A stretch of DNA of 47,768 nt, taken from positions 1 to 47,768 of the forward strand of contig JBAURA010000444.1 of the NCBI GenBank assembly GCA_049580985.1, read 5' to 3'. Below the pieces are notes generated by a model. That model saw only the letters and a list, made by a program, of their open reading frames with translations, was not told where the DNA came from and did not search any database. The position numbers and the translations under genes were made by a program. Each line of letters begins with the position of its first letter. Position 1 is the stretch's first letter. This document shows, piece by piece, positions 32,124 to 47,768 of this stretch. This stretch comes from Chloroflexia bacterium (GTDB lineage: Bacteria; Chloroflexota; Chloroflexia; QHBQ01; JADMIH01).

Positions 32124-32361
32124 AATCAACTCGCGCATTATCGAGTCAGAGTTTGGCACATTTTGGCACGAAGTACACGGCGAAGGACGGTGTTCGACGG
32201 CGAAAGATGGCGTTCCGAGCGTACTATCAGACGTCAAGCGGCTATGAACGGCGATAGACGGTTGCCAAACGCATAATCCCACCTTCGGCACAATCAGCAG
32301 GGTTCATGTGTTATAATTGCGGCGGGTTTGCTCACCGATCAGCAAGTCGCAATGCTTCTTG

Positions 32362-32518
32362 ACAGCCAAGGCGTTGGACAATCCTAGAAGTCTATGGACG
32401 AAAGTTGTCGAATAGAGTCGCATTTACGTACGCAACGGACGTCTTTGGACACCCCTGGAGAGTGATCTCGCCAACTCTGGATCAGTAAGTTGAGGTTCGG
32501 ATCCTTGCGCCCCAGCCA
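32362..32518 (+). repeat. Noncoding element copy 1 with a tRNA-like 3' end (paralog of 46019-46175)
   Basis: It ends in TGAGGTTCGGATCCTTGCGCCCCAGCCA, a T-arm-like GGTTCGnATCC plus a terminal CCA. By manual alignment, 32471-32541 matches 46128-46198 at 64 of 71 positions. Weaker similarity extends ~110 nt upstream (ACAGCCAAgGCGTTGGACAA...). It is followed directly by a strong terminator hairpin. Confidence 0.5.
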
Positions 32519-32533
32519 ATAAGTTACGCACGA

Positions 32534-32567
32534 AAATGGCCTGGTGCAAATCTGCACCAGGCCATTT
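32534..32567 (+). terminator. Intrinsic terminator hairpin after element copy 1
   Basis: AAATGGCCTGGTGCA (32534-32548), an AATC loop, then TGCACCAGGCCATTT (32553-32567). This is a 15-bp perfect stem whose 3' arm ends in TTT. Confidence 0.65.
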
Positions 32568-32892
32568 GCTCAATGAGTCTAGCCAATAATGTAGGCTAAT
32601 GTCTATCAGTGGCTCTATTGTGAGAAGTAGAGCTGGCCCAAACATGAGCGCGCCGACGTGGGACATGCAGGAAATGTAGTAACAACTGCTTTGGGGTAGG
32701 AAGGAGTTGTGCTCCACGTGATCACGCGTGGAGGAGTTGCATGCTGGGCACGTAGCGCCTTGCGGGAGAAGCGTTTATCTGAAACGGCATCTCGCTTTCG
32801 GCTGAGCATGAACTCCAGGATGTTACCCTGTGGACTATATCAGGGTAAGCCCACAATTCGATAACCGTGAACGAGGCTAGACGAGGCTCAGC

Positions 32893-35484
32893 TTGCAAGC
32901 CCATCCGAACAGAGGCATACCTTTTCCTGTGACCGCCTTTATAGGTAGGTTCAAGGAGCTTGCGTCCGTCGTGGCCTTGTTACGCGATCCGGAGGTGCGA
33001 TTGCTCACGCTCACAGGGCCGCCGGGTACGGGCAAAACCCGTCTGGCTATGAAAGCATCGCAAGCTCTACAAAGCGCTTTCCGTGACGGCATTTATTTCG
33101 TGCCTCTTGCTATTACGAGAGAGGCTATTGGCGTTCTCAATGCTGTTGCGCAACGGCTTGACCTCAAGCAAATTGATGAGCAATCAGCCCCCAAGCAGGT
33201 TATTGAATATCTTAGAGAGCGTGAGACTATGTTGCTGCTGGACAACTTCGAGCAGGTACTGTCCGCGGGCCCACATCTGGTTGACTTGCTCGAACAGTGC
33301 CCAGGGCTGAAGATACTTGTCACAAGCAGAGCGGCTCTCAAGGTGTATGGGGAGCAAGAGTTCCCTGTACCGCCGCTTGCCCTCCCAGACGAGGAGCAGA
33401 CAAGGTCGTTGACCGCGGACACCGCCCTGGAATACGAAGCGGTCGCACTCTTTGCTCACAGAGCCAGGTTGGTCAATCCGTATTTCGAGGTAACCGACAG
33501 CGACGCTCCGATCGTGGGACAGATTTGCCGGGAGCTTGACGGTCTGCCTCTATGTATAGAGTTGGCGGCTGCACGCTGTAAAACGATCCCTCCTGCCTCG
33601 CTGCTTGCGCTTCTAGACAACAAGTTCGACCTTCTCACCTCGGAAGCACGCAACCTGCCACTCAGGCAGCGCACTCTGGTCGCCGCAATCACCTGGAGCT
33701 ACGAACTGCTTGATCCCAGTGAAAGGACTTTGTTCAACAGGCTCTCCATATTTGTAGGCGGCTGCACCCTGGCGGCTGCTGAATATGTTTGCACTCTGCC
33801 CGGTGAGCCTCAGCATGGCATGCTTGATCCTGTCACATCGCTAATGGATAAAAGCCTGGTTGACAGAGAGGACCGGGCAGGACAGCCACGCTTCAAGATG
33901 CTGGCTACCCTACGTGAATACGCACTGGATAGGCTTAAACGATCGGGCGAAATGCACTCCGTGCACAAACAACACGCGCGTTATTTCGGACTGGTTGTGG
34001 ACAAGGCTGAGCCGTATTTGCATAGTCCCCACAGAGACCAGTGGCTAAAAAGCCTGGACTCTGAAGTCGAGAATGTGCGAGCGGCGTTAGCCTGGTGCCT
34101 ATCGGACGCGGGCGACCCTCTCGCAGCTTTGCGTATCGCCGGGGCGTTGCACTGGTTCTGGTACTTCCGCGGTTATCTGTCCGAGGGGCGGGATTGGCTC
34201 GAAAGAGCATTCGCGCGTGTAGGCAACGACTTGCCCACCACGGTCGAGACGGCCAAGGCGCTGGATGCGGCGGGCCACCTCGCTCTGCTACAGGACGACT
34301 ACGAGGCCGTGCAGTCTCATCTGACGCGCGCCCTTGCCATGTGGCGGGAGTTGGGCGACGACAAGGGCTTGGCTTACTCACTTAGTCATGCGGGAATTGC
34401 ACGCGTGTACAGGCACGCAGACATAACGGGGCTTGCTCTGCTGAAGGAGTCGCTGAATCTATTCCAGGGCACCGACGACACATGGGGATTGGCGACAGCT
34501 TATGACCTGTGCGCCGAAGCTCACATTTTGCTCGGCGATTCTGCGGCTGCGGCAGGTTGTTACAATGAAAGTCTGCGCCTTTTCCGCGAGATGGGAGATA
34601 TGTGGGGGATCGCCGCCGAACTAGGAGAGATCAGTCGGGTTGAAATTAGGCAGGGCAACTATGTTGCAGCAAAATCGAAGCTTGACGAAGCCCTATCCAC
34701 TGAGAGGCTGGTGGAAGATCGCTGGAACAGGGCGCATACGCTCCGCAGCCTGGGCGATGTCGCTTATTGCCTGAACGACTATCAAGAGGCGCACCTATGC
34801 TACGAAAGCGCTGCCGAATTATACCGCGACCTGGGGGATCGCATGCGAATGGGGGCATGCTTGCGCTGCCTGGGCCACGTCGCACTTAGGACCAACCAGC
34901 CTGAAAACGCGAAAGCTCTCTACCTGCATAGTCTCGGCATCGCAGCGAGTCTAGGGGCGACTCCCAGCCTGGCATGGTGTCTGGCTGCTATGGCCGGATG
35001 GGCAGTCCGGATGGGCGAGGCAATACGCGCCGCCGAACTCCTGGGTGCTGCCGATAGACTGGGCAAGGCTAATCATGCAATACTGCCTGTCGTCGATGCG
35101 CACGAACGGGCCCGGACCTACGAATTGATCAAGTCGAGCCTCGGTAAGCAAGAGTTCGCCTTAGCCACAGTTCGAGGCGCTTCATTGGGGACCGAGGATG
35201 CGATAACGGTCGCGCAAAGGGTAGCCGAGCTCGGTTTGAAACAAGAGTCAGACGATATTCCCACATATGGCGGCAGACGCTCGCCGACCGTACCCAAGTT
35301 GAGCGCCCGCGAAATAGAGGTAGTCAAATTAGTGGAGCAAGGCTTGAGCAATGCCGAGATAGCTGATGCTCTCATTCTCAGCACGAATACTGTGCGCGCC
35401 CACCTCTACTCGGTCTTCGACAAGTTCGGTGTACCATCACGTACAGCCGCGGTCAGATACGCTAGAGAGAACGGCCTGATTTAG
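32893..35484 (+). CDS. STAND (NB-ARC-like) ATPase + TPR + C-terminal LuxR-type HTH regulator
   Basis: 863 aa with a TTG start (start uncertain).
- Walker A: LTGPPGTGKTRLA.
- Walker B-like: MLLLDNFEQV.
- STAND core: LDGLPLCIELAAAR.
- TPR units.
- C-terminal LuxR HTH: LSAREIEVVKLVEQGLSNAEIADALILSTNTVRAHLYSVFDKFGV. Confidence 0.88.
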   Translation: MQAHPNRGIPFPVTAFIGRFKELASVVALLRDPEVRLLTLTGPPGTGKTRLAMKASQALQSAFRDGIYFVPLAITREAIGVLNAVAQRLDLKQIDEQSAPKQVIEYLRERETMLLLDNFEQVLSAGPHLVDLLEQCPGLKILVTSRAALKVYGEQEFPVPPLALPDEEQTRSLTADTALEYEAVALFAHRARLVNPYFEVTDSDAPIVGQICRELDGLPLCIELAAARCKTIPPASLLALLDNKFDLLTSEARNLPLRQRTLVAAITWSYELLDPSERTLFNRLSIFVGGCTLAAAEYVCTLPGEPQHGMLDPVTSLMDKSLVDREDRAGQPRFKMLATLREYALDRLKRSGEMHSVHKQHARYFGLVVDKAEPYLHSPHRDQWLKSLDSEVENVRAALAWCLSDAGDPLAALRIAGALHWFWYFRGYLSEGRDWLERAFARVGNDLPTTVETAKALDAAGHLALLQDDYEAVQSHLTRALAMWRELGDDKGLAYSLSHAGIARVYRHADITGLALLKESLNLFQGTDDTWGLATAYDLCAEAHILLGDSAAAAGCYNESLRLFREMGDMWGIAAELGEISRVEIRQGNYVAAKSKLDEALSTERLVEDRWNRAHTLRSLGDVAYCLNDYQEAHLCYESAAELYRDLGDRMRMGACLRCLGHVALRTNQPENAKALYLHSLGIAASLGATPSLAWCLAAMAGWAVRMGEAIRAAELLGAADRLGKANHAILPVVDAHERARTYELIKSSLGKQEFALATVRGASLGTEDAITVAQRVAELGLKQESDDIPTYGGRRSPTVPKLSAREIEVVKLVEQGLSNAEIADALILSTNTVRAHLYSVFDKFGVPSRTAAVRYARENGLI

Positions 35485-35747
35485 CTACTACATAGACCTT
35501 TCTCAACCACTCACCTGTGAAGCCGGCACCTTCTGTGAGATGCCTTTCTTGAGCGCTTCTCGTTCGCGCTCAACTGCTTTTCGATCCGGTAGTCCTGGAT
35601 GCGCGTCTTCAGGTTGGGCTGGTTCAAGAGGGTAACGGCGATTCAATCCCTGCCCTTATGCATCACTCGGTATTGTTCTACACATAGTACTATTCCCGGC
35701 CAACGAGAGACCGTACACCATTAATCAAGCGAAATAACGTAAAATCA

Positions 35748-35776
35748 TTGACTTACTTGTGTATCTATGATACATT
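35748..35776 (+). promoter_or_regulatory. Sigma70-like promoter upstream of the repeat-core precursor gene
   Basis: TTGACT (35748-35753), a 17-nt spacer, then TACATT (35771-35776). It sits in an AT-rich stretch ~85 nt upstream of the ATG at 35862. Confidence 0.5.
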
Positions 35777-35861
35777 TTGTATAACTTGACCGCCGCCAAG
35801 TACTCTGATGCCTGTTGCAAGGCGTCGACTTGTCGTACCATTACTGGTCAGGAGGCAAACT

Positions 35862-36470
35862 ATGTCCGTAATCGATCCCAACAATGATACCGATTTCATA
35901 GCGAAATCAATCGCCCACAACCTGCGCTACCCACCGCCGAACGTTGTGCCCTATTGGGGCTACCTTACGGCGGCCCTGAAGAGAGTACCCAATAACGGCA
36001 ACCCGAGCGCTGGCCATGAAAACGATCTTGAGCCGCCTAATGCGACTGATATCTATTGGAGGCTCTACAGAACGCTAGAGTTGCGGGAATACATCGAGTT
36101 TAGCGACGACGATGTAGTGTTCTTCAGAAAATTGGCGCTTCCACTAGCGGGGCAGGCGCAGTTACATGGTGGTTTGGTCTGGCTTAGAGTCGGAGCAAAA
36201 CTCGACCACGTAGTTGTCAATCATATGGAGGTGGAAGCCAACTACCTTCAAGGGCCCATTACGTCCACCGCCGGACCGCCCCAAGCTGGCCCCATCCATC
36301 CTGAGGGCTACTCGCCGTCAAACGTCTCATGGACCTGCGGAGGGCATTCATTCGCCTGTGGAGGGCAGTCTTTTGCATGTGGTGGGCATTCATTCGCGTG
36401 CGGAGGACAGTCTTTTGCATGTGGTGGGCACTCATTCGCCTGCGGAGGACAGTCATTCAACTGTGGGTGA
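35862..36470 (+). CDS. Precursor-like protein: 158-aa N-terminal domain plus six tandem CGG[H/Q]SF[A/N] heptads
   Basis: The ORF track starts at 35808. The ATG at 35862 (MSVIDPNN) has GGAGG 6 nt upstream. The C-terminus is TCGGHSFACGGQSFACGGHSFACGGQSFACGGHSFACGGQSFNCG. The gene lies immediately upstream of the kinase and lyase-cyclase genes. Confidence 0.75.
   Translation: MSVIDPNNDTDFIAKSIAHNLRYPPPNVVPYWGYLTAALKRVPNNGNPSAGHENDLEPPNATDIYWRLYRTLELREYIEFSDDDVVFFRKLALPLAGQAQLHGGLVWLRVGAKLDHVVVNHMEVEANYLQGPITSTAGPPQAGPIHPEGYSPSNVSWTCGGHSFACGGQSFACGGHSFACGGQSFACGGHSFACGGQSFNCG
36336..36467 (+). repeat. Tandem 21-bp coding repeat organised as three 42-bp (His-unit + Gln-unit) super-repeats
   Basis: tgc gga ggg cat tca ttc gcc / tgt gga ggg cag tct ttt gca / tgt ggt ggg cat tca ttc gcg / tgc gga gga cag tct ttt gca / tgt ggt ggg cac tca ttc gcc / tgc gga gga cag tca ttc aac / tgt ggg. 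In the first two Gln-units, the codon choices (tct ttt gca) differ consistently from those in the His-units (tca ttc gcN). Confidence 0.9.
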
Positions 36471-36570
36471 CAGATATTCAACTGCGACCGTTGGTGACTA
36501 GTTCGTCGCTCCACGCTGGTTTTCTGCGCCGAAAGCGAAAGCGATTGGGCGACTACCTCAAGATACCGCG

Positions 36571-37689
36571 ATGCTAACTAAAGAAGCGGTCGCTCCCTAC
36601 TTGATGCGCCAGGGTTTGCTCGACCCCGAAGCTCTGGTAGAGAGCGGCCTCTCGATACGCCGCATCGCAGGTCGTAACTCCAATTTCATAATTGAACTAG
36701 CTAATGGCTCTGGTTACTTGCTCAAACAGGCTGTGGATGCCGAGAAGGCCTCGTTTCTTGATAACGAAGCCAGAGTCTACACCTACCTCTCAGGGTATAA
36801 CGATCAATTCACTCGTTACATACCTCCTTTGCAATCCTATAACGAGGACGAGCACATACTCGTGCTGGGGCTGCTGCCGAGTGCTCGGCAGCTAGGAGAA
36901 CATCTCGTCCGGACCGGACGCTTCTCGACTATGATAGCCAGACAGCTTGGCCGAATGCTGGCGGCTCTGCATAGGCGTGGATCTCACGATAGAGCCAACA
37001 ATCCTGTAACGCTGGCTACCAGACCAGTGCCCTGGGTTCTTTCTATCCACCGTCCGCATATTGAATTGTACCGCCTCGCCAGTCAGGCTAATCTCAACTT
37101 GATAGCTAAGATACAGATGTTCCCTGACCTTTGCGACCACATCGAGGCACTCAAGCAAACCTGGCAGCCACTAGCTCTGATACACTACGACCTAAAGCTG
37201 GAAAACATGCTGGTGGTTCCGGCCACAAAAGCCGGCCAATCGCGTTTGACCGTCCGGCTGGTTGACTGGGAGATGGCGGGCATCGGTGATCCTTGCTGGG
37301 ACATTGGATCGGTATTCGGTGCGGTATTGAGCTTTTGGCTTCACTCCATGCCCTTTTCTGGAGATGGCGCTCAAGGTTTGTCACCAGAGTTCGCGCGCTT
37401 CCCCTTGCAGAGAGCGAGGTCCGCTTTATTGAACTTCTGGATCTCGTACGAGCGAGGCATGCAGTTCGCTCCAAGTATATCGAACGATTGCCTACTGCGG
37501 TCCACCAGTTTCGCCGCCGCACGGTTGGTGCAATCGGTGTTCGAGCAATGCCAGGTAATGACGCAGCTTCCAGGCACAGCATTGAATGCACTGCAACTCA
37601 GCTCAAATATACTACACAAACCGCTGGAAGCCGCAGTCCACTTGCTAGGGCTACAGCCACGAGTCGAGTGGAACGAGGCGCAACTTTGA
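36571..37689 (+). CDS. Aminoglycoside-phosphotransferase/choline-kinase-family kinase (LanK / TvaC-like candidate)
   Basis: 372 aa. The catalytic loop is LIHYDLKLENMLV and the metal-binding segment is LVDWEMAGIGDPCWDIG. The N-lobe reads GRNSNFIIELANGSGYLLKQ. The stop codon overlaps the start of the next gene (TTGA). Confidence 0.8.
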   Translation: MLTKEAVAPYLMRQGLLDPEALVESGLSIRRIAGRNSNFIIELANGSGYLLKQAVDAEKASFLDNEARVYTYLSGYNDQFTRYIPPLQSYNEDEHILVLGLLPSARQLGEHLVRTGRFSTMIARQLGRMLAALHRRGSHDRANNPVTLATRPVPWVLSIHRPHIELYRLASQANLNLIAKIQMFPDLCDHIEALKQTWQPLALIHYDLKLENMLVVPATKAGQSRLTVRLVDWEMAGIGDPCWDIGSVFGAVLSFWLHSMPFSGDGAQGLSPEFARFPLQRARSALLNFWISYERGMQFAPSISNDCLLRSTSFAAARLVQSVFEQCQVMTQLPGTALNALQLSSNILHKPLEAAVHLLGLQPRVEWNEAQL

Positions 37690-39968
37690 TAGAGATCGAT
37701 TACAAGGCTCAGCTATTGGCTGCTGTGAGGGCTGTACGAATAGTGTCGTTGAACCGATACTCGTGGTTTGGAGCCGACACAATCGTACTGCCCGGCCGGG
37801 TCAGGCGCGCAGTCAGTCCAGACCTAGCCCGGCGCTACCTCGGGTCGAGCTTGCAGCACAGGCTCTACAACGATTTCTACTGCAAGGGAAATCCAATGCG
37901 GGGGTCAGCAGGCACGTACGGACCGCTCCAACAGAACGCGATACCCTTCCTTCAGCAGCTTGAAAGAGCAAACAGAGGCGTGGGAGGCTGGGAGACCGGT
38001 TGGCGCGTGGTGGCCAGGGGCAACCCTGCCGTCGTGCTTGAGGATGGTCGCCTTGCGCTCTGGCCGCGCCCAGATGAAATGTGGCTGGTGAACCAGGAAG
38101 CAGAGTTGGGGCACGAAGGGGCATTGCGCTATCCGAAGGGCCTTCCTTCGATCTCGCCGGGCTTCTATTTGGTGCTTGGGGACACGCCCCCGCCAGCCAA
38201 TGGCAGTGGGCCGCTTGTTCGGCTCTACTGGAACGTGTCTGCCCAAGGTGCGGCAGTTCTGGTCGGCCTGGTCACAGAGGCTCTCAACAGGTTACAGGCT
38301 CCGTTCCGCCTGAAGGTGGTTAGCAACCCTGAGCAGTTCGATAGGTGCGACACGGCGATACTCTACATAGAGGTATCACGCTACGCAACTGTCGCGGCCA
38401 CGCTGGTGGGGATCTATGCGCAGGTGCGCGACACCCTGCGCGGAGACGTGCCAGCGCTGACTGGTAAGCTTGCGCCGGGGCTTGGATTAGCCGAGGACCC
38501 AGGTGGCGGAGAGAGTTACGGCCTCCACATGTGCGGGCTACTCGCTGAAGGTCTGCTCAGAGCTTTTGAGCTTGGTCTTTCGGGTGATGCGAGATTGGGA
38601 AGTGTGCTTGCGTTACTACAAGAGAGAGGCATCTCGCCGGAGCGGCCCTATTTGCGGCCAGGTTCCCAGGATATATACAACTTCGACGTTCACCACTCAT
38701 CCGGAGCTGGGAAGGGCACCCTTGTTTGGATCGAAAACGCAACGGATTCAGACAGGGCGGATTATTTGGAAACGGCGGCGTTTATAGGGTGGCAGTTATG
38801 CCGCACGGCCATATGGTACAACAGGCGCTGCACGTGGATAGGCGCAACTGCTCCAGGCACGGTGCCCGGTGACCGATACGGGCAAGCGCTAGCTACGTTA
38901 GGACCTGATCTGTACGCTGGGACCGCGGGGGTAGGGCTATTTCTGGCCTGCCTGGCGGAGGTCACCGGCGACCCAACGGTTGAAAGGACGGCGCTCGGAG
39001 CGATGGAGCAGGCTTTCGCAACGGCAGACAGGATCGCGCCGGCCGATAGGCAGGGATTGTACACTGGCTGGATCGGGATTGCGCTTGCAGGTTGCTACCT
39101 TGACCGTTGTATGGGCCAGGGCTGGTCCAGCAGGGCAGCTAACTTGCTCGACACACTACTTGAAGCCGGCGACGCGCCCGGCGGGTTTGACTACCTGGGG
39201 GGCAGCGCTGGCGCTATCATGGGGCTGCTCGCGCTGAAACGGTTGCTGGGCTGTGGCTACCTTTATGACAGGGCGCGCTCTATGGGCGATCAATTAGCAC
39301 TGGCCGGTGCAACCGGAGAATATGCGCCGGAAGCGCATCGAACGAACGCTGGAAGGAAGTGGGGGAGAAGACCGCTAACGGGCCTTGCTCACGGAGCAGC
39401 AGGAGTGGGAGCTGCTCTTATGGAGCTGTACGCGACATCTCAGGAAGTCCGGTACAGGCACGCTTCCGAAGCGGCTTTCGCATATGAGCGTGCATACTTC
39501 GATATTCTAGAGGCTAACTGGCCAGATTTCAGGGCCGGGATTCGCAGGCCATACGCCTACTCAACACACTGGTGTCACGGCGCGCCCGGCATAGCTTTGA
39601 CCAGGCGGCGCGCATACAGCCTAACGGGAGATGTCAAATACCTGGAGGAAACGCAAGCCGGTATACAAACTACAGAACAATGGCTTGAGAGCGCGCTGCG
39701 CGCGGACCGTGAAAACTTCTCCCTGTGTCATGGGCTAGGTGGCAACGCCTGGATCGCTTTTGAAGCTGCTACACCAGGGGGTGTAGGTCGGTATTACGCC
39801 CATGCAGTGGCCAGGCGGGGCATAGAAGCTCACAAGAGATACGGAGTGTGGTTGTGTGGAACGCCTGGAGGAGAGGCCCAGGGATTGATGCTAGGTCTCT
39901 CAGGCATAGGCCTTTTCTACTTGCGTCTCGCCGGGGTAAGCTCCTTTTCACCTCTGTACATAATCTAG
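37686..39968 (+). CDS. Fusion protein: HopA1-like domain (candidate pSer/pThr lyase) + LanC-like cyclase with Zn ligands
   Basis: The ORF is open from 37293, but that part overlaps the kinase gene out of frame. Likely starts are TTG 37686 (4-nt overlap with the kinase stop) or GTG 37668.
- N-terminal half: GPLVRLYWNVSAQGAAVLV...FRLKVVSNPEQFDRCDTAILYIEVSRY (HopA1-type pattern as I recall it).
- C-terminal half: GTAGVGLFLA, GLAHGAAGVGAAL, THWCHGAPGIAL, SLCHGLGGNAWI, GLSGIGLFYLRL. Confidence 0.75.
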   Translation: MIEIDYKAQLLAAVRAVRIVSLNRYSWFGADTIVLPGRVRRAVSPDLARRYLGSSLQHRLYNDFYCKGNPMRGSAGTYGPLQQNAIPFLQQLERANRGVGGWETGWRVVARGNPAVVLEDGRLALWPRPDEMWLVNQEAELGHEGALRYPKGLPSISPGFYLVLGDTPPPANGSGPLVRLYWNVSAQGAAVLVGLVTEALNRLQAPFRLKVVSNPEQFDRCDTAILYIEVSRYATVAATLVGIYAQVRDTLRGDVPALTGKLAPGLGLAEDPGGGESYGLHMCGLLAEGLLRAFELGLSGDARLGSVLALLQERGISPERPYLRPGSQDIYNFDVHHSSGAGKGTLVWIENATDSDRADYLETAAFIGWQLCRTAIWYNRRCTWIGATAPGTVPGDRYGQALATLGPDLYAGTAGVGLFLACLAEVTGDPTVERTALGAMEQAFATADRIAPADRQGLYTGWIGIALAGCYLDRCMGQGWSSRAANLLDTLLEAGDAPGGFDYLGGSAGAIMGLLALKRLLGCGYLYDRARSMGDQLALAGATGEYAPEAHRTNAGRKWGRRPLTGLAHGAAGVGAALMELYATSQEVRYRHASEAAFAYERAYFDILEANWPDFRAGIRRPYAYSTHWCHGAPGIALTRRRAYSLTGDVKYLEETQAGIQTTEQWLESALRADRENFSLCHGLGGNAWIAFEAATPGGVGRYYAHAVARRGIEAHKRYGVWLCGTPGGEAQGLMLGLSGIGLFYLRLAGVSSFSPLYII

Positions 39969-39978
39969 CGAAAGGCAG

Positions 39979-40037
39979 CAGCTAAGAGCTGACGCTGTCG
40001 AGACCTACGAGACCTCAATAGCGTCAGCTCTTAGCTG
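39979..40037. terminator. Bidirectional terminator hairpin between convergent genes
   Basis: CAGCTAAGAGCTGACGCT (39979-39996), a 23-nt loop, then AGCGTCAGCTCTTAGCTG (40020-40037), followed by TTT. It lies between the stop at 39968 (+) and the stop at 40040 (-). Confidence 0.7.
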
Positions 40038-40039
40038 TT

Positions 40040-42844
40040 TCATGCGGTGTCCATCGTAGTTATGGCGATGTTGTTGTCGAAGGGGACGAGCCGCCAGACA
40101 AGGGTAGGTCCGCTGGCGCAAGGGAGTGCAAGGGCGGCTGCCGGGTCAATGTTGCTCAGGTCTCCATACGCACTCACGTCAACAAGCAGGAGCACCTGCG
40201 GCCTGTCGGGGACTGTCCATTCCAGTGGCCCTATGATCTCTACGCCGCCCGCACCGACGGGCGGTCCGGATATGGAGCCTATTGAACCCGCCGACCAATC
40301 GTTAGGCCACACCGCGCCGGGAGTGCCATTGCTGTGGTAAGCTCGCATCGTCACAAGTGTGGCTGACTGGTAACCCCGATTCCACACCCGTACATACAGA
40401 TAGTTGACCGCTTTACGCACGGGTGGCTGGTGTTCGGTTAGAGGGTTTACAGTCGCAGGGTTGGGCGGCGTCGCGTAGCTCGCGCGCCGGTTCCATATCT
40501 CCGTGGTGCCATGAAAGTTCTCCAGGTACGGGGCATAGGAGCCTCGGCGGGAGTCATCTATGTACAAATCCACAGGCTGCTTGCCTGGCGCGACGACAGG
40601 TGCTGATGAGCCAGGCGGCTGATAGAGACCTTGCTGCTCGAAGCTCCATTTGATCACCTTTCCCACCGCACCGCCCGCCAGAGAGTGAGGTGTAGGCAAG
40701 TTGGGTATCTCGAGGGCCGGGTCCGGAAATGCCACAGTTGCCTTGTCAGCCTCCAACATAGCCGTCACGTAAGCGTCGGGCGTGCTTGTGGGTGTGGAGG
40801 AAGCAGGCGGCAGGCCACCAATAGCTCTGATGATCAGGTAACTCATGTACCGTGCCGCTAACTCTTTGACCGCCCGCGCAGCGGGTATCTCGTCGTGAGC
40901 AGACATGGTAGCATCGCCCCCCAGCGCGCAATACGCCCTGAATAAGGATGTAGAGAGTATCTGCTCTTGTTGGTAGCCCCAGTAGGGCTTCATGCCCTGC
41001 TTATCCTCATTGTCTATCTGGCCGCCCCATGCGTAATTCAGGTAGGTGCGTAACGAACCGCCGTGATACCTCCATCGCCCACTCAAAGCCGGATTCTGGC
41101 TCATCAGCCAGGGGTACGTGCCAAAACGCTCCGGTTCATTCACCAGCATGGTAGCAGGGTCGCTCAGTATGGCGGCGAGGCTGTCGCCAGCGCTGTGCGC
41201 GAAGGGGAAGTTGGGCGCGTGGAGGCGCGACCAGAGCAGAGCGTGGCAAAACTCATGCATCGTGATACGTGGGTCCAGCGCGTTGCCCCAGAATACCAGA
41301 GGTTCTGAGTTTAGTCGCCCGTAGTAAACGCTATCGAGGCGGGTAAAGTCTTCGTAACCCATCGTGCGCGCATCTACAGCGCCTTCCGTGCCAAGCGGGT
41401 CAACTCGAATAGGCACTTGAAGGTTGGGCGGGAAGAAGTCGTTCAACAACCCAAGATACTCCAGCAGGCCAAACATCGAGTCAAGATGGTAGTACGCGCT
41501 CACTGCGGTAAACTTCGAGGATTCGGTAATGATTTCATAGTTGAAGTTGAAGCTTAAGCTGCCAGACGGGTTTTCTGCTTGATCTTCGCCAACCGAGGGG
41601 TTCCACAGATCTGTTATATAAAGCCATTTGCCACTAAGCTTGACAGGTTTCCCCACTTCGCGGCTCACCTCGAACGACACAGGCACTCGCAGATTACGGA
41701 CATGGCTATCGCTCACAGAGGTGGGCGGAAAGAACAGGTCGTTGCCCCGGGACGTAACAGGATCAGCGTTCAGCACAAGGCCATTAGCAGTCACCATCTG
41801 CATGGCAGCAGCGACAACCGGCATATCGCCTCCTGCTGCACCCCCTGTGCCCGTTTTGCCCGTTTCGTCTATAGCTCCAACATCCTCATCATCGAAACCG
41901 TCGAGCGAGGCCGAGGCAGCATTGGGTGAGAGCAAGCTTGGCTGCTCATAATCCAAGAAACTGTCAGGGTCGTCCAGGGAGGGACTTACGAGGTTACTGT
42001 CAAGCGCTGGAGAAGGGTCTGCGAAGCAAGATACCAGCGACGTTTCCACAGAGAGCGCAAATCCAGTTTCGGTATGCACGAACGCTCGCCAATTTACGTA
42101 GCTGGGTCGCATATCGCTTCCGGTCACGCTCACGGTGAAGAGAACCTCCGTCACCAGGTAGTGTAAGCCGCCCACAAATATACCCGGCGGGAGCGGGGGC
42201 AAAGGAAGGGTTGTCAGCCTATCCAAGAAGGCGTCGGCCGACGCGGCTGTTTCTGTCATCACATCACGAGGCGACGCTTGATAGCGATAGTAAAGGAGCC
42301 TTGTGGCCTTGAACTGGACCACTTTCCTGTCCAGGGCAGGGTTATACAGTCCCAACAACGTCTCCAACATAGGTAGCGATATGCGACCGGGCAGATAAGG
42401 CGCGGTTGCCGGGTCTGTCCCTTCCCACACAGGCGAGAGATGGAGAGAGCTTTGGGAGCTTGTGATACGCAAGTTCTTGTTGTGTGGGCTAACCACAACC
42501 GATACGCCCGCTTCCCACACAGGCAGCCCGTTGATGGTCTGCGTGTAGCAAACTACGTGAGTCTTGTCGGGATTGCCTACCGATACGACGGTATTGAAGC
42601 GCAACTGAGACCCGTCCTTCGGTATAAAGTCTGAGCCTATGGGCGTACTTAAGTCGAGCTTAACCGTGTGATCGGGGTCGTAGTGGGTAGGCAGGTTTTC
42701 CACCAGGTAGCTCTGCGCCAGCAAGGCCGGGTATGACCCTTCTATATACTGGCCGAATTCCCTGATGTGTTCTATGTGCACGAGGCGACCTCGGTCGTCT
42801 CGCACACTATGGATGTTGGGCGACAGCAAATTGATACTTACCAC
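40040..42844 (-). CDS. Large putative zinc metallopeptidase (HExxH)
   Basis: 934 aa with a GTG start. AGGAGG lies 8 nt upstream. There is a single HExxH motif in the context RITMHEFCHALLWSRLH. No obvious signal peptide is present. I cannot assign a family by eye. Confidence 0.6.
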   Translation of the reverse strand: MVSINLLSPNIHSVRDDRGRLVHIEHIREFGQYIEGSYPALLAQSYLVENLPTHYDPDHTVKLDLSTPIGSDFIPKDGSQLRFNTVVSVGNPDKTHVVCYTQTINGLPVWEAGVSVVVSPHNKNLRITSSQSSLHLSPVWEGTDPATAPYLPGRISLPMLETLLGLYNPALDRKVVQFKATRLLYYRYQASPRDVMTETAASADAFLDRLTTLPLPPLPPGIFVGGLHYLVTEVLFTVSVTGSDMRPSYVNWRAFVHTETGFALSVETSLVSCFADPSPALDSNLVSPSLDDPDSFLDYEQPSLLSPNAASASLDGFDDEDVGAIDETGKTGTGGAAGGDMPVVAAAMQMVTANGLVLNADPVTSRGNDLFFPPTSVSDSHVRNLRVPVSFEVSREVGKPVKLSGKWLYITDLWNPSVGEDQAENPSGSLSFNFNYEIITESSKFTAVSAYYHLDSMFGLLEYLGLLNDFFPPNLQVPIRVDPLGTEGAVDARTMGYEDFTRLDSVYYGRLNSEPLVFWGNALDPRITMHEFCHALLWSRLHAPNFPFAHSAGDSLAAILSDPATMLVNEPERFGTYPWLMSQNPALSGRWRYHGGSLRTYLNYAWGGQIDNEDKQGMKPYWGYQQEQILSTSLFRAYCALGGDATMSAHDEIPAARAVKELAARYMSYLIIRAIGGLPPASSTPTSTPDAYVTAMLEADKATVAFPDPALEIPNLPTPHSLAGGAVGKVIKWSFEQQGLYQPPGSSAPVVAPGKQPVDLYIDDSRRGSYAPYLENFHGTTEIWNRRASYATPPNPATVNPLTEHQPPVRKAVNYLYVRVWNRGYQSATLVTMRAYHSNGTPGAVWPNDWSAGSIGSISGPPVGAGGVEIIGPLEWTVPDRPQVLLLVDVSAYGDLSNIDPAAALALPCASGPTLVWRLVPFDNNIAITTMDTA

Positions 42845-43536
42845 GGATGTTACCTCCTGTTATAAGCGTGCATCTAAGCAGATGGGTACGCTGGAAAGGG
42901 CGCGTTCCTTGGAGAACAGCCCTGTGTCCACATCGTGGCGAGTTGTTGAGTTAGGGTCGGGCGGAGTATGCCCTTATTATAGCAGAAAGCTTGCGTATAG
43001 TGTGTATATTTTTACTCACTATTCTGCTGAATCTAGAAGTTCTGGATGTCGATAGACATTGTATGTATCTGGATAGCCCGCTAATGGATGTGAGTACGCC
43101 ATGCTTGAGTCGATCACATGCGACTCCTCTATTCGATTTAGTTGTGCGCGTTTACAGATTAATACAAAAGATTAATCTTTTTGTCTGATGTGCGTACGGC
43201 AGGACCACGGTACTATCCGTTATGTGGCAGGTTGCCGAGCGGGTTGCGGCGGAGTAGACCCAGGATCGCCGATATTGCCACTTCTAGATATTCAGCGACT
43301 GGTATTAACAGCTACAGACAAAAAGGAGCAAGACCTATCAGGAGACCATATACTCAGTTCTGCGGTTACAGGTTCTCGCTAACCGGGATGCGGGTGAGAT
43401 AAGGAATGCCGCGGACGAGTCGCACGAGGGACATCTGGCGTCCAATGAAGACGTCGAACCGCTCACCGGCTGGTAGAATACCTGCAAGACATCCAAATTA
43501 TAGGATGAAATATGACCAAAGCGGAGGTATGCAGCT

Positions 43537-43868
43537 GTGAGAGTGGTACTAGATGTATTCAGCGGATGCCCGAATCCGTCCTGGGAGTCGTCTGAGGAAG
43601 AAATTGTGCACGCAACACGCCACAGACACGGTCGAGGCACCCGCGGAGTCCCCCCTCGGCTACAGGGGATTTTCGCCTCACGGCCGGTTAAGCGGATATC
43701 GGTTTACCCGACCAAATCTACGTCGGTAGCGGGGCTGTGACGATTCGAGACAGAAATGCCCACCGGGCAGCCCGATACCTGGATGTACACAACCTGGAGA
43801 AGTGGCTTGCACAGAAGGCCGAAGCACAAGGATACGGAAACCTTGTGAGCCACCTGCTAGACGATTAG
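43537..43868 (+). pseudogene. Possible frameshifted small gene (three frame segments)
   Basis: - Frame A (43537-43740) starts MRVVLDVFSGCPNPSWESSEEEIVH.
- A second frame gives PLGYRGFSPHG.
- A third frame (43692-43868) gives IYVGSGAVTIRDRNAHRAARYLDVHNLEKWLAQKAEAQGYGNLVSHLLDD*.
The pieces look protein-like and collinear, but none is a complete gene. Confidence 0.3.
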
Positions 43869-43938
43869 AACCATCTCGCAAACACAAAGATGCAACCGGG
43901 CGCGATCTGCGCTCAGATGCGAACAAAAGGAGCAGAAA

Positions 43939-45414
43939 ATGACACGTGAAGATAGATCGCGCAAGAACGCCGCGCGAAGAGACAATGGCCAGAATAACGC
44001 CGGCTTTGGCTTCAACATAACCGACGGCATCGGCGACACAGGCGGAGTCGCTGGCAACGGCAACGGTAACGGCAACGGTGCGAACAACATCGTTCCGGGC
44101 ACCACCGGCCGCTACCTCGTTCTCCTCAAAGAGAATACCGTAGCTGAAGGCGTATCTCTCTTGAGGGAGTCTACCGGCCTGAGAGTAACCTCAACTCAGG
44201 ACTCTGCTGATGGAGTTCTGGATGAAGAACAACTTCAAAACACCGATGTGATCGTGTTTGACCAGCTTGCAGTAGCCGTGGTTGACGCGCTGCCCGAGCA
44301 CATCAATGCGATCAGTGGAGTTATGGGCAACGAAAGCAGCCCCATCCTCGCTATAGAGCCTGAGCGCATCGTGTTCGCGTTCGAGGATAACGCGCCCGGC
44401 TTTTCAACCGGGGTTGGACTACAGGTACGCGAAGCAGAGGCAACTGTGCCCGCGGACTATCTCTACGGCTACAAAGACGCTGTTGACCATCTGATCGAGA
44501 AGTTACTTGGCAACGGGCAACTCTCAGAGGAATACGGTAGTGAAGAAACAGCTTCCTACGTCGAGAGCGAGTACACCTGGGGCTTGCAAGCGACTAAAGT
44601 AGTATCCACACGCTACACAGGCCGGGGCATCAAAGTAGCCGTACTCGATACTGGATTCGACTTGCGACACCCTGACTTCGTAGGGCGCACCGTGGTCACC
44701 AAGTCGTTCATAGCGGGCGAGCCGGTAGAGGACGGACATGGGCATGGAACGCATTGCATCGGCACTGCCTGCGGTCCCAAGCGACCGACTCAGCTGCCTC
44801 GTTATGGCATTGCCTACCAGGCGGAGATCTACGCCGGCAAGGTGTTGAACAATCGGGGCAGCGGCACCGATAGCGGCATCCTGGCCGGAATCAACTGGGC
44901 CGTCGCCAACAAATGCCAGGTAGTCTCTATGTCGCTTGGTGCGCCCGTGATGCCCGGTCAATCGCATTCGCAGATCTTTGAGCAAGTGGCAAATCGGGCA
45001 TTGGCGGCTGGCACGCTCATTATCGCTGCGGCAGGCAATTCCAGTCGCCGCCCTGGCTCGATCAATCCAGTGGGCCACCCCGCCAACTGCCCATCGATCA
45101 TGGCCGTGGGCGCGCTTGACTCGGCTTTGCGAATAGCATTCTTTTCCGAGGGCGGTTTGCAACCCAACGGCGGCCAGGTGGACATTGCCGGGCCGGGCGT
45201 GGATGTCAGGTCCAGTTGGCCGAGGCCGATGCTCTACCGCACCATCAGCGGCACAAGCATGGCTACCCCGCACGTAGCAGGCATCGCTGCCCTCTTCGCC
45301 GAGTCGAACGCACGCGCCAGAGGACGGGTGCTCGCTCAATTGGTGATGCAACACGCTCGCAGGCTGGCCCTTCCAGCCCGCGACGTGGGGACAGGCCTGG
45401 TACAGGCTCCCTAA
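43939..45414 (+). CDS. S8 (subtilisin-family) serine peptidase with an N-terminal propeptide-like region
   Basis: 491 aa. The triad contexts are VAVLDTGFDLRHPDF (Asp), GHGHGTHCIGTA (His) and SGTSMATPHVAG (Ser). The N-terminus has a GNGNGNGNG low-complexity tract and an I9-like segment (RYLVLLKENTVAEG...VIVFDQLAVAVVDA). No hydrophobic signal peptide is present. Confidence 0.88.
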   Translation: MTREDRSRKNAARRDNGQNNAGFGFNITDGIGDTGGVAGNGNGNGNGANNIVPGTTGRYLVLLKENTVAEGVSLLRESTGLRVTSTQDSADGVLDEEQLQNTDVIVFDQLAVAVVDALPEHINAISGVMGNESSPILAIEPERIVFAFEDNAPGFSTGVGLQVREAEATVPADYLYGYKDAVDHLIEKLLGNGQLSEEYGSEETASYVESEYTWGLQATKVVSTRYTGRGIKVAVLDTGFDLRHPDFVGRTVVTKSFIAGEPVEDGHGHGTHCIGTACGPKRPTQLPRYGIAYQAEIYAGKVLNNRGSGTDSGILAGINWAVANKCQVVSMSLGAPVMPGQSHSQIFEQVANRALAAGTLIIAAAGNSSRRPGSINPVGHPANCPSIMAVGALDSALRIAFFSEGGLQPNGGQVDIAGPGVDVRSSWPRPMLYRTISGTSMATPHVAGIAALFAESNARARGRVLAQLVMQHARRLALPARDVGTGLVQAP

Positions 45415-45433
45415 TAACCTTCGCACATATAGA

Positions 45434-45469
45434 GCGAGGTGGAGCACGACTTGCTGTGCTCCACCTCGC
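45434..45469 (+). terminator. 14-bp perfect stem-loop after the S8 peptidase gene (no T-tract)
   Basis: GCGAGGTGGAGCAC (45434-45447), an 8-nt loop, then GTGCTCCACCTCGC (45456-45469). Confidence 0.45.
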
Positions 45470-45521
45470 CGCTATCATATTGCAGCACAATGCAATTACC
45501 GCTTTGTAAAGGAGGCCACAC

Positions 45522-45821
45522 ATGCCGGCACGCAAAAAGAAAGGTAGCCCAAGGAAGTCCGACCACGGTGACAACCAGAACGATACATATGTACCGGTGT
45601 CGGTTTCTATTGACGACAGCTATCAGCAGCGTTTTGAAGAGGTGCTTCGAAGCTGTGCTGACGTTGGGATGCAAGTTGAACAGAAGATGCCGTCGGTTGG
45701 CGTAATATCAGGCAAAATAAGGCCGACGCAAGTGGCTGCCCTACGCGCGGTCAAAGGAGTATCCTTCGTAGAGAGGGACCAGTCTATCTCGCTTCCATCT
45801 CCCGACGACGACGTGCAGTAG
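45522..45821 (+). CDS. Small protein resembling a stand-alone subtilisin propeptide/inhibitor I9 domain
   Basis: 99 aa with an ATG start and an AAAGGAGG RBS. After a basic N-terminus: YVPVSVSIDDSYQQRFEEVLRSCADVGMQVEQKMPSVGVISGKIRPTQVAALRAVKGVSFVERDQSISL. This has the beta-alpha-beta-beta-alpha-beta pattern and the GV.FVE.D ending typical of I9-type propeptides. Confidence 0.55.
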   Translation: MPARKKKGSPRKSDHGDNQNDTYVPVSVSIDDSYQQRFEEVLRSCADVGMQVEQKMPSVGVISGKIRPTQVAALRAVKGVSFVERDQSISLPSPDDDVQ

Positions 45822-46018
45822 GCAGCACCAGCGCCTATGTACCCGCTAATTGGCAGGGAACTGGAACGCAAATAGGTGAAGGCTTTGTTGCCGCAAATGA
45901 TTATGACTGCTAAAGTAGGGCTTGCTGCCTCTTCATGCTAGTGCGCGGACTCGCCTAAGCACGCTTTCCTCACCCTTTTTCCGTAAACGAGTGTTTGCCG
46001 CTCGTGGCAGCCAAACTC

Positions 46019-46175
46019 ACAGCCAACGCGTTGGACAACCGTAGAGTTCTCTGGACATAGTTACCACGAGGTCATCGTAATTCATGCAGACAAGGGGCCC
46101 TACAGACGTCTCTGGACGACTATCTCTCCAACTCTAGATCAGTTAGTTGAGGTTCGAATCCTTGCGCTCCAGCCA
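46019..46175 (+). repeat. Noncoding element copy 2 with a tRNA-like 3' end (paralog of 32362-32518)
   Basis: It ends in TGAGGTTCGAATCCTTGCGCTCCAGCCA, with a canonical T-loop (GGTTCGAATCC). The upstream part, ACAGCCAAcGCGTTGGACAAcc..., is shared with copy 1. It is followed by a terminator hairpin. Confidence 0.5.
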
Positions 46176-46188
46176 ATAAAATACGCAC

Positions 46189-46224
46189 GAAAACGGCCCA
46201 ATTATATAATTTGAGGCCGTTTTC
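46189..46224 (+). terminator. Terminator-like hairpin after element copy 2
   Basis: GAAAACGGCC (46189-46198), a 16-nt AT-rich loop, then GGCCGTTTTC (46215-46224). Confidence 0.5.
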
Positions 46225-46644
46225 CTTGGGCTTGTGTAGCCAATTATATACTGCCTGTCGCCTGACTACCAACTAGCAATAACAGGCTTAGTGGATCGCC
46301 CCCGGAGCCGCAAGCATCCTTTCGCCATAACTCTTGATTGGACACTTATTGAGCACCTTTCGGGCGGGACAATGAGCACCCCCACGCCGCATAATGCGTT
46401 CAGAGAGTAATCGCTACTATTGCCTCGTTACCTCCTTGAGTGATATACTGGCACATATCATCGTCGTCCCCCTATCTCTTGTAGAGATGGCGGGGCGGCT
46501 GTCTGCATGTAAATATCTGTGCGGACGGAAGCCCGAGGGCTGTACCTCGCAAGGTAACACGCATGGCATTGGGCGCTCATAGGCCGTCCCTCTCTATGAC
46601 GGGTTCTGTGGCGCTGCCGTTTGTTGCCGAAGGAGTGCTTTTGC

Positions 46645-47768
46645 ATGAATTGCCCTGATTGCCAGACCTATAACCCGGAAGGTGCCAAGTTCTGCTTCAA
46701 CTGCGGAACCTCGCTCTCTATTAGCTGCCGCGGTTGTGGCACCCAGCTTATGCCCGGGGCCAGATTCTGCGTCAATTGCGGCCACCCGGTAGCTGCCTCC
46801 GGCCCTCCAGCGCTCGAACCTACCCAGGTAGCCACCCCCATAGTAACACCCTCTCACTCCTCCCCGGCCAGGCCCGCGACCGACCAGTCGCTTGGCCGTC
46901 TGCAACAGTACATCCCAAAGGAACTCCTCAACAAGCTAGAGGCAGCCAGGGCAAACCGCGGCATGGCGGGCGAGCGGCGCATCGTGACCGTCCTCTTCTG
47001 CGACATAAAAGGCTCCACCACCCTCGCCGAGATGCTCGACCCCGAGGAGTGGGCCGACATCATGAACGGCGCCTTCAAATACCTGATCGAGCCTATTTAC
47101 AGGTACGAAGGCACCCTTGCCCGGCTCATGGGTGACGCCATCCTCGCCTTCTTCGGCGCGCCCATCGCCCACGAGGATGACCCCCAGCGGGCTGTGCTGG
47201 CGGGACTTGACATCATCGAGGGCATGAAAGAGTATCGCCAGCAGATCAAGAGCCAACACGGCTTCGACCTGAACGTTCGCGTCGGGATCAACACCGGCCT
47301 GGTGGTAGTGGGCGAAGTGGGGTCGGACCTGCGAGTTGAATACACCGCTATGGGAGATGCCGTCAACCTGGCGTCCCGCATGGAGCAGGCCGCCGAACCC
47401 GGCACCGTGCGCATCTCCGGCAACACCTACAAATCGGTGTCCAACCTTTTCTACTTCAACGCGTTAGGCGAGATCGAAGTACGAGGCAAGGCTGAGCCGG
47501 TGCCAGCCTACGAGGTGCTCAGCGCGCGCGAAGGCGCTATCCCCACGCGAGGCATCGAGGGCCTTGCCTCCCCCCTGGTCGGCAGGGCACGAGAACTCTC
47601 CGCACTACAGGCAGCCATCGAGGATGTAACCGCCGGCCTGGGCCGCGTCGTATCCATCATGGGCGAAGCGGGTCTCGGCAAGTCCCGCCTCGTGGCCGAG
47701 CTAAGACAGTGGACGAAGGACGAAGGACTAAAGACGGATGAAGCGCCTTCGTCGTCCGTCCTTCGTCC
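46645..47768 (+). CDS. Double zinc-ribbon + class III adenylate/guanylate cyclase + STAND ATPase (partial, runs off window end)
   Basis: This ORF is not in the ORF track because no stop codon is reached. Reading from the ATG at 46645:
- Zn-ribbon: MNCPDCQTYNPEGAKFCFNCGTSLSISCRGCGTQLMPGARFCVNCGHPV.
- Cyclase motifs: RRIVTVLFCDIKGSTTLAE, GDAILAFFGAP, VRVGINTGLVVVGEVG...EYTAMGDAVNLASRME.
- Walker A: IMGEAGLGKSRLV. Confidence 0.85.
   Translation, partial: MNCPDCQTYNPEGAKFCFNCGTSLSISCRGCGTQLMPGARFCVNCGHPVAASGPPALEPTQVATPIVTPSHSSPARPATDQSLGRLQQYIPKELLNKLEAARANRGMAGERRIVTVLFCDIKGSTTLAEMLDPEEWADIMNGAFKYLIEPIYRYEGTLARLMGDAILAFFGAPIAHEDDPQRAVLAGLDIIEGMKEYRQQIKSQHGFDLNVRVGINTGLVVVGEVGSDLRVEYTAMGDAVNLASRMEQAAEPGTVRISGNTYKSVSNLFYFNALGEIEVRGKAEPVPAYEVLSAREGAIPTRGIEGLASPLVGRARELSALQAAIEDVTAGLGRVVSIMGEAGLGKSRLVAELRQWTKDEGLKTDEAPSSSVLR

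Follow-up and report, generated by a model that had tools for sequence, protein, structure and literature searches.

tRNA-Gln-derived units with attP-like arms border probable lanthipeptide islands in an uncultured Chloroflexia bacterium

Contig JBAURA010000444.1 of an uncultured soil Chloroflexia bacterium (assembly GCA_049580985.1) carries two similar noncoding elements that resemble the 3' end of a tRNA and bracket a 13.66 kb segment holding a lanthipeptide-type gene cluster. Are these elements RNA genes in their own right, or are they traces of recombination that mark the segment as an island? We addressed this question using a 47,768 nt stretch of the contig (positions 1–47,768, hereafter the window), the genome to which it belongs (G000; 5.0 Mb, 820 contigs) and 25 other genomes of the genus. 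The two elements, named f1 and f2, are probably relic attachment (att) sites, left by the tandem accretion of integrase-less islands that carry lanthipeptide clusters and resemble cis-mobilizable elements (CIMEs).

A tRNA-Gln core between attP-like arms

Both elements lie on the + strand of the window in direct orientation. Their best-matching 71 nt blocks (32466–32536 and 46123–46193) share 64 identities, as the first-pass annotation, which was made from the letters alone, had reported, and a BLAST comparison within the whole genome aligned the copies at 75% identity over 179 nt (E 4.4e-23). The units proved wider than the 32362–32518 and 46019–46175 at first assigned to them, with f1 spanning about 32346–32601 and f2 about 46005–46245. 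The motifs then listed, GGTTCG[G/A]ATCC, TTGCGC[C/T]CCAGCCA, ACGCACGAAAA and TAGCCAAT[A/T]AT, occur in both copies, as does a weaker similarity on the 5' side, ACAGCCAA.GCGTTGGACAA..TAGA..TCT.TGGAC, and the T-loops indeed read TTCGGAT in f1 and TTCGAAT in f2.

A genome-wide BLAST search for the parent gene of the repeat returned few copies, with one hit on contig C563 of the same genome, where ARAGORN called an intact tRNA-Gln(CTG) gene. The repeated block is nearly identical to the 3' part of this gene and runs from the anticodon stem/loop to the tRNA 3' end: the f1 core (32474–32516, + strand) matches tRNA-Gln(CTG) positions 30–72 at 42/43 nucleotides (97.7%), and the f2 core (46131–46173, + strand) matches the same positions at 40/43 (93%), with three mismatches. 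It comprises the last anticodon-stem pair, anticodon loop, variable loop, T-arm, acceptor 3' strand and discriminator plus C. Identity to the C563 gene ends one base beyond the discriminator, where the flank of the intact gene diverges; the 5' flank of the intact gene is a TTGACA/TATAAT promoter. Only positions 30–72 are present, and because the 5' half of the tRNA is missing no full cloverleaf can be folded from either copy, in keeping with the first-pass attempt and with empty ARAGORN and Rfam searches.

The single f1 mismatch turns the conserved T-loop A58 into G (TTCGAAT to TTCGGAT), while those of f2 fall in the anticodon (CTG to CTA, G to A), the variable loop and the acceptor strand. 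Such mismatches are not benign for a tRNA-like module, and the anticodon-loop change of f2 sits inside the presumed strand-exchange region. The same CTA for CTG, giving a palindromic TCTAGA, is found in two independent units, f2 (46131–46145) and one of a relative (G002:C408, L034), by either shared descent or recurrent change.

Tyrosine-integrase elements recombining in tRNA genes classically leave duplicated tRNA 3' parts as their footprint. Other duplicates of this kind in the genome start at tRNA positions 29–53 and run to or near the 3' end; they derive from tRNA-Lys(CTT) on contigs C597 and C609 (5199–5242), tRNA-Pro(GGG) twice on C253 (7176–7216 and 4453–4475), tRNA-Gly(GCC) on C765 (5575–5618) and tRNA-Arg(TCG) on C467 (1–27). 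Those on C609, C253, C765 and C467 lie 0.5–3 kb from their parent genes or on other contigs, and integration scars are common in this genome.

The core is only the central part of each unit. Six units were aligned: f1, f2, a third unit of the same locus (f0, described below), a tRNA-Lys unit on contig C597 (Lys f1) and two further tRNA-Gln units in relatives within the genus (G020:C259 and G002:C408). A whole unit is ~250 nt long and consists of a P arm, the core and a P' arm. The 5' to 3' order common to all six is TGACAGCCAA repeats, GGAC boxes, CTCTCCA, core, CCA with AATAAnnTACGCACGAAAA, a hairpin and TAGCCAAT repeats, a layout with arm-type repeats on both sides of the core. One or two distal TGACAGCCAA repeats (TTGACCAC in the tRNA-Lys unit) stand ~115–135 nt 5' of the core with a 12 nt period, and the TAGCCAAT repeats of the P' arm share this period. 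The GGAC boxes occupy offsets −91, −71, −30, −20 and −10 on one strand only, with GTCC absent from the other strand; all five offsets are common to f0, f1, G020 and Lys f1, and shuffling gave P values per unit of <0.001 to 0.09 (0.003 for f1). Both arms and the phased boxes are kept in every unit although the spacers between boxes have diverged by 25–35%. Judged from this layout, the TGACAGCCAA-type distal repeats are putative integrase arm-type binding sites and the GGAC/TGGAC boxes putative sites for a recombination protein (integrase or directionality factor). To our knowledge these arm motifs, the TGACAGCCAA repeat with a 12 nt period and TGGAC at −91, −71, −30, −20 and −10, have not been described.

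The limits of f1 (32346–32601, + strand) follow from the six-member alignment and from an nhmmer match of a P-arm profile at 32346–32485 (E 1.7e-31). Its distal P-arm repeat, TTGACAGCCAAG (32359–32370), is single, and is double with a 12 nt period in f0, f2, G020 and G002. Five GGAC/GGAG boxes follow at 32376, 32396, 32437, 32447 and 32457 (32376–32460), the proximal three being spaced exactly 10 nt apart. The 3' flank (32517–32566) is of the tRNA-Gln type, with CAATAAGTTACGCACGAAAA and then a 14 bp hairpin at 32535–32566 which folds with its context at −28.6 kcal/mol, and beyond it lie the P'-arm repeats TAGCCAATAATG and TAGGCTAAT (32580–32600), again with a 12 nt period. All these features are on the + strand, as are those of f2.

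The most decayed of the three units at this locus, f2 (46005–46245; nhmmer 46005–46142, E 6e-30, and alignment) still has a P arm, a tRNA-Gln 3' core, the tail, the hairpin and one TAGCCAAT. Its distal repeats, CAGCCAAACTCA and CAGCCAA (46008–46026), keep the 12 nt period, and GGAC boxes stand at 46033, 46053 and 46114 (46033–46117), those expected near 46094 and 46104 being degenerate. The 3' part (46174–46245) consists of the tail CAATAAAATACGCACGAAAA, a hairpin at 46189–46224 (−18.1 kcal/mol) and a single TAGCCAATT at 46237–46245. Each copy had been credited with a terminator of its own; the hairpin is present in both, but a consensus terminator scan called neither as a terminator, because the T-runs are short.

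The unit on C597 carries the same arrangement around a different tRNA, its core matching the tRNA-Lys(CTT) 3' half at 47/47 nucleotides and being followed by the tail TTACGCACGAAAA, a hairpin and TAGCCAATAATGTAGCCAAT. It borders a cluster (G000:C597:161–6463) of a putative C5 cytosine methyltransferase gene, judged by eye from the first residues, and then genes of 563, 712 and 247 aa; the cluster looks like a restriction-modification or defence island, and no integrase was seen in it. The P-arm profile finds three full units in this genome (f1, f2 and Lys f1) and one partial match just 3' of the tRNA-Gln gene on C563, the distal P-arm motif also lying 3' of that intact gene. Pattern searches revealed no further units or intact elements in viral or metagenome contigs, and in genome contigs only the two already known units, G020:C259 and G002:C408. 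The tail word ACGCACGAAAA also occurs in two copies of an unrelated repeat, GGGCTGTnC...ACGCACGAAAATGAATTATGACCATGTCTCA (G000:C218, 3484–3525 and 4846–4887), which may be a repeated 5' leader.

A third unit, the integrase link and the flanks

The HopA1-LanC fusion protein encoded between f1 and f2 is also encoded on a 1.63 Mb long-read contig, ena:ERZ25039588:contig_283, which is 99.8–99.9% identical to the window over 36 kb and extends it to the left. At about −684 to −516 in window coordinates, this extension carries the third unit, f0, which points the same way as f1 and f2. The f0 core (about −558 to −516) is identical to tRNA-Gln at 43/43 nucleotides, and its P arm contains five TGGAC boxes and a TGACAGCCAAC repeat that is doubled. 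The tail represents a second type, in which a hairpin precedes TGACAGCC and GTGGAC boxes, and is much like the sequence flanking the intact C563 gene. The array thus reads f0, 33.0 kb (E1), f1, 13.66 kb (E2), f2, and with at least three units the 13.7 kb segment is therefore one cassette of an array. Core mismatches rise along it from f0 to f2 (0, 1 and 3), a gradient that sequential integration at the tRNA gene would explain, because the oldest element would be pushed furthest out.

Two inverted IS240-like insertion sequence (IS) copies lie just left of f0, and their outer IS end is the end of contig C563, therefore an IS-mediated rearrangement may have parted the tRNA gene from the array. 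The two copies (L077, 3032–3930 and 12651–13672; about 11.4 to 0.8 kb left of the window start on contig_283) bracket 8.7 kb that resembles a composite transposon, with SnoaL, DUF6875, asparagine synthase, O-methyltransferase and DinB genes. The same IS end closes contigs C563, C428 and C712 of the metagenome-assembled genome, and the window start (1–540, − strand) falls inside another transposase fragment.

Relatives connect the repeats with integrases. Among 25 distinct intact tRNA-Gln loci of relatives, the tail motif is found at nine, with tail and hairpin following the gene as in f1 and f2, an AGCC double repeat after the hairpin at seven, and neither at 13. As only 7/25 intact loci carry the double repeat, it is element-borne and not native. 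At G022:C206 a tRNA-Gln(TTG) gene is followed by the tail, the hairpin, CAGCCAAATGTGTAGCCAAA and the stop codon of a convergent tyrosine-integrase gene, which is frameshifted and 5'-truncated and ends within a few nt of the repeats. An attL would be expected to show just this order of tRNA, P' arm and integrase. At L013, L018, L067 and L068 the corresponding position is taken by C-terminal remnants of integrases. In five loci fetched from ~3 genomes an integrase remnant lies just past the tRNA terminator, adjoining the repeats where those exist. The gene order in relatives therefore links an integrase family with the AGCCAA repeats. A search for att sites at the far ends of the integrase-linked loci in G022 and G021 found none.

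The closest G022-type integrases in the genome studied here are damaged, that on C576 (52% identical) having its 5' end cut by an IS and those on C277 and C733 being fragments. With >7,700 proteins at E 1e-40 or better, the C576-type family is large, and it was rejected as the source of the cognate enzyme: two of its full-length members, P0124 and P0126, lie on long contigs and have neither tRNAs nor such repeats next to them. A small conserved gene (MARQQVNVRLSSYT...AIDRLARD) 5' of full-length C576-type integrases (L079, 9700–10000; L080, 9760–10062) looks like a ribbon-helix-helix protein gene and may encode an excisionase or regulator.

Genomes without the ~13.7 kb segment, which the first-pass annotation had named as a useful comparison, are the rule within the genus: apart from short TPR/AAA stretches, E2 DNA is unmatched in the 25 other genomes, and in this genome all E2 genes are single-copy. 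Close relatives of the HopA1-LanC gene were not found in genome contigs either, and since the best protein homologues are only 45% identical we regard the E2 island as not seen elsewhere.

To the right of f2, the conserved host flank (46339–47768, + strand) comprises a promoter/operator region and the 5' part of a zinc-ribbon/cyclase/STAND gene. This flank is kept in six relatives (70–77% amino acid identity, with upstream DNA conserved from 46339), where it abuts other genes and has no tRNA fragment; f2 therefore lies at a synteny break. A motif pair upstream of the cyclase-STAND gene, TGGACACnnAnTGAGCAC...GGACAATGAGCAC (46339–46400), looks like an operator and in relatives comes directly after the stop codon of the preceding gene.

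In one relative, G012, tRNA-Gln fragments bracket integrase-less, defence-like cargo at two loci, a 2.6 kb pair of AAA_21 ATPase and DUF4435 genes (L043, G012:C92:49173–51841) and a 5.3 kb CHAT-STAND-TPR gene (L040, G012:C85:58263–63635). The arms of these fragments differ from those of the units described above, therefore several element families use tRNA-Gln.

Probable accretion of islands and competing explanations

These observations are best explained by an element family whose tyrosine integrase would target tRNA-Gln(CTG) at the anticodon loop. The attP of such an element would measure ~250 bp, with TGACAGCCAA-type direct repeats (12 nt period) and up to five helically phased TGGAC boxes in the P arm, and a core copying the 3' 43 nt of the tRNA. 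Its P' arm would provide a replacement tail and hairpin for the tRNA together with (T/C)AGCCAA repeats, and the integrase gene would lie just beyond. Integration would restore the tRNA gene, whose displaced 3' half would then lie at the element's far end, and repeated integration at one tRNA would shift older elements outward. Each internal junction would then consist of the P arm of the left element, a core and the P' arm of the right element; being composed of the arms of two elements, f1 and f2 would for that reason look like whole attP sites, with f1 as the junction of island E1 (left) and island E2 (right). The locus would read f0, E1 (33 kb), f1, E2 (13.66 kb), f2 and host DNA, and both islands would have lost their integrases and persisted as att-bounded, CIME-like islands. 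The anticodon-loop sequences at which strands would be exchanged do not match between f1 and f2 (CTCTGGA vs CTCTAGA), and since integrases of the lambda family normally fail to recombine sites with differing overlaps, E2 is probably no longer mobile.

Several observations weigh against this origin. Neither an integrase nor a remnant of one is present beside f1 and f2 or within E2 (Pfam; tblastn gave only noise), and integrases adjoining a tRNA-proximal att site were seen in relatives only, as decayed genes. None of the genomes examined yielded an intact element, complete with its two att sites and a full-length cognate integrase. In the available assemblies the array is not adjacent to an intact tRNA-Gln gene, as the 14.4 kb of contig_283 to the left of the window and the 19 kb contig C18 beyond contain no tRNA. 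The link between C563 and f0 consists of the shared IS end and a weak arm similarity; pairing of P' and P arms by local alignment scored 34 for C563–f0 and 26–27 for other pairs, which lends it weak support. The conserved right flank of the relatives is not downstream of tRNA-Gln and a precise empty attB was not recovered, therefore a rearrangement has to be assumed. The HTH-STAND protein of the window (29496–32123) is 38–44% identical to the neighbours of the relatives' cyclase gene, compared with 54.6% to the product of a gene elsewhere. A simple empty site, with the HTH-STAND gene joined to the cyclase gene in five relatives, was accordingly dropped, the window HTH-STAND not being the orthologue. 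Furthermore, the GC content of the cargo (0.53–0.60) is the same as that of its surroundings, and protein binding to the repeats is predicted from their layout.

The units might instead be live, integron-like sites, at which a trans-acting tyrosine integrase, encoded elsewhere in the genome, would shuffle integrase-less cassettes with one full attP-like unit apiece on a tRNA-Gln-derived platform. The persistence of arms and phased boxes in every unit despite the divergence of the spacers would suit such a system, as would the existence of units with homologous arms for two tRNAs (Gln and Lys) and the lack of an integrase in all bracketed segments examined (E1, E2, G012:C92 and G012:C85). However, the fragments bracketing the G012 cargo are without this P-arm architecture, hence belong to other element families, and the G022-type integrases nearest to hand in this genome are the truncated or fragmentary genes on C576, C277 and C733. 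The presumed overlaps of f1 and f2 are mismatched, the progressive decay of the core is that of unselected scars, and viral, metagenome and genome collections contained no more units. We consider live cassettes improbable; were they real, soil Chloroflexia would use a tRNA-Gln-derived array to store and swap whole RiPP (ribosomally synthesised and post-translationally modified peptide) clusters with their STAND regulators, along with defence genes.

As its other possibility, the first-pass annotation proposed a small-RNA family with tRNA-like 3' modules, whose members would be genes with promoters and terminators of their own acting as tRNA mimics, for instance as decoys for CCA-adding or modification enzymes or as processing signals. 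GCCA is indeed encoded in both copies and absent from the intact C563 gene, a strong hairpin follows each copy, a TGnTATAAT-like box lies upstream of copy 1 (~32311–32319), and one layout is kept across six family members. Against these points, tRNA-Gln genes of relatives ordinarily have CCA, tail and hairpin on their 3' side, and no promoter is kept between the copies. ARAGORN found 0 genes in the window, and Rfam gave no match at gathering scores and nothing relevant at E up to 10. The anticodon and acceptor stems have no 5' partners in the copies, and copy 1 has lost the conserved T-loop A58. A structured small RNA was ruled out with RNAalifold, the consensus of four members reaching −7.8 kcal/mol with no meaningful helices and with the T-arm not recovered. 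The conservation upstream consists of short, one-strand direct repeats at helical spacing, a signature of protein-binding DNA and not of RNA helices. Lacking a conserved structure, a promoter and any Rfam or ARAGORN match, the small-RNA family is left without support and is very unlikely. As recombination scars, the "tRNA-like" elements therefore give no cause for further study as RNA genes.

Local segmental duplication of one tRNA-Gln 3' region, with ordinary chromosome in between, would account for two direct copies on one contig and for the unremarkable GC content of the bracketed DNA, but we give it hardly any credence: at only 75% identity the copies still keep discrete boxes, which fits different, related elements and not duplication with uniform decay, their upstream arms have no counterpart 5' of the real tRNA gene, where the promoter stands, the arm repeats adjoin integrase remnants in relatives, and the bracketed DNA is missing from the 25 genus genomes. 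Three further candidates were ruled out, namely a dispersed repeat family, which had been named as a possible refutation of island borders (three full units and one partial match in 5.0 Mb), an assembly artefact (the copies differ by 25% and both are on the independent long-read contig) and a tmRNA or permuted tmRNA (negative ARAGORN and Rfam searches, tRNA-Gln core). The original suggestion of att duplications derived from a tRNA or tmRNA, marking an integrase-less island, is accordingly favoured with tRNA-Gln(CTG) as the parent, and its tmRNA variant falls away.

Island cargo and comparison with known systems

Pfam was run on all open reading frames of >=140 aa plus small ones near the arms. 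The E2 cargo (32602–46004) has no integrase, excisionase or transfer gene by this search. It encodes a LuxR-STAND regulator (32893–35484), a 220-aa repeat-core precursor-like protein (35808–36470), an APH-type kinase (36571–37689), the HopA1-LanC fusion (37686–39968), a 934-aa protein with no Pfam match (40040–42844, − strand) and an S8 peptidase (43939–45414), in agreement with the regulator, repeat-core precursor and peptidase genes recognised at first pass. The share of E1 within the window (1–32345) belongs to the 33 kb segment between f0 and f1, and Pfam identified E1 genes for class IV lanthipeptide synthetases, several STAND regulators, an SLH protein and an ABC exporter bearing a cNMP domain; an IS fragment is present as well.

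Two lanthipeptide clusters of an uncultured soil Chloroflexia bacterium thus sit in discrete islands with att-like bounds, each with its own STAND-type regulator genes and E2 also with peptidase genes. As att sites, these bounds would mark the clusters as horizontally acquired and provide natural cut points for cloning, 32474 to 46130 in the case of E2. The TGACAGCCAA repeats and phased TGGAC boxes would likewise represent the first sequence-level attP layout for a Chloroflexia integrase family and, if matched to a full-length integrase, could seed site-specific integration tools in a phylum with few genetic tools.

Tyrosine-integrase att sites in tRNA genes, including an anticodon-loop class, were reportedly described by Williams in 2002 (Nucleic Acids Res). 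The units agree with that class in that the direct repeat is the 3' part of a tRNA, the replacement 3' end and terminator are element-borne, and an integrase lies beside the tRNA-proximal end, here in relatives. They differ in that the copies in the window adjoin neither an intact tRNA nor an integrase, and in that both have full P and P' arms.

The attP sites of lambda and mycobacteriophage L5 are 240–250 bp long; both arms hold tandem pairs of arm-type sites for the integrase, and the P arm also has phased Xis sites. The units described here are similar in size (~250 bp), in having paired direct repeats in both arms ~65–135 nt from the core and, as a matter of layout, in the phased short boxes between the distal repeats and the core. 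The 12 nt period and the box sequences are different, and some P' arms, those of f0 and C563, also have TGGAC-type boxes, which sets these boxes apart from lambda Xis sites.

Hypervariable islands of Prochlorococcus are said to be bounded by repeated tRNA 3' fragments (attributed to Coleman et al. 2006, Science). As in those islands, partial tRNA 3' repeats here mark what appear to be successive insertions, mostly without integrases. Unlike them, the repeats in our dataset keep extended, structured arms, and the cargo consists of secondary-metabolite clusters.

CIMEs and the tandem accretion of integrative conjugative elements (ICEs) and integrative mobilizable elements (IMEs) are defined in PMC5704250, with examples including the ICESt1/ICESt3-related islands of Streptococcus thermophilus and tRNA-Lys islands in S. 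agalactiae. The locus shares with these the tandem islands and the internal att sites derived from the 3' end of one tRNA gene. Both ends of each island are retained, f1 and f2 bounding E2 and f0 and f1 bounding E1, and no integration or transfer genes were detected inside (Pfam; tblastn with integrases). A functional ICE or IME relative with conjugation or mobilisation genes was not found. Unlike the CIMEs of PMC5704250, these islands belong to an uncultured soil Chloroflexia host and carry RiPP (lanthipeptide) cargo with STAND regulators, and their CIME-likeness is read from att sites and gene content. Accretion of islands at a tRNA gene is already well known; what this locus adds is a Chloroflexia-specific att architecture bounding RiPP islands, and not a new class of RNA.

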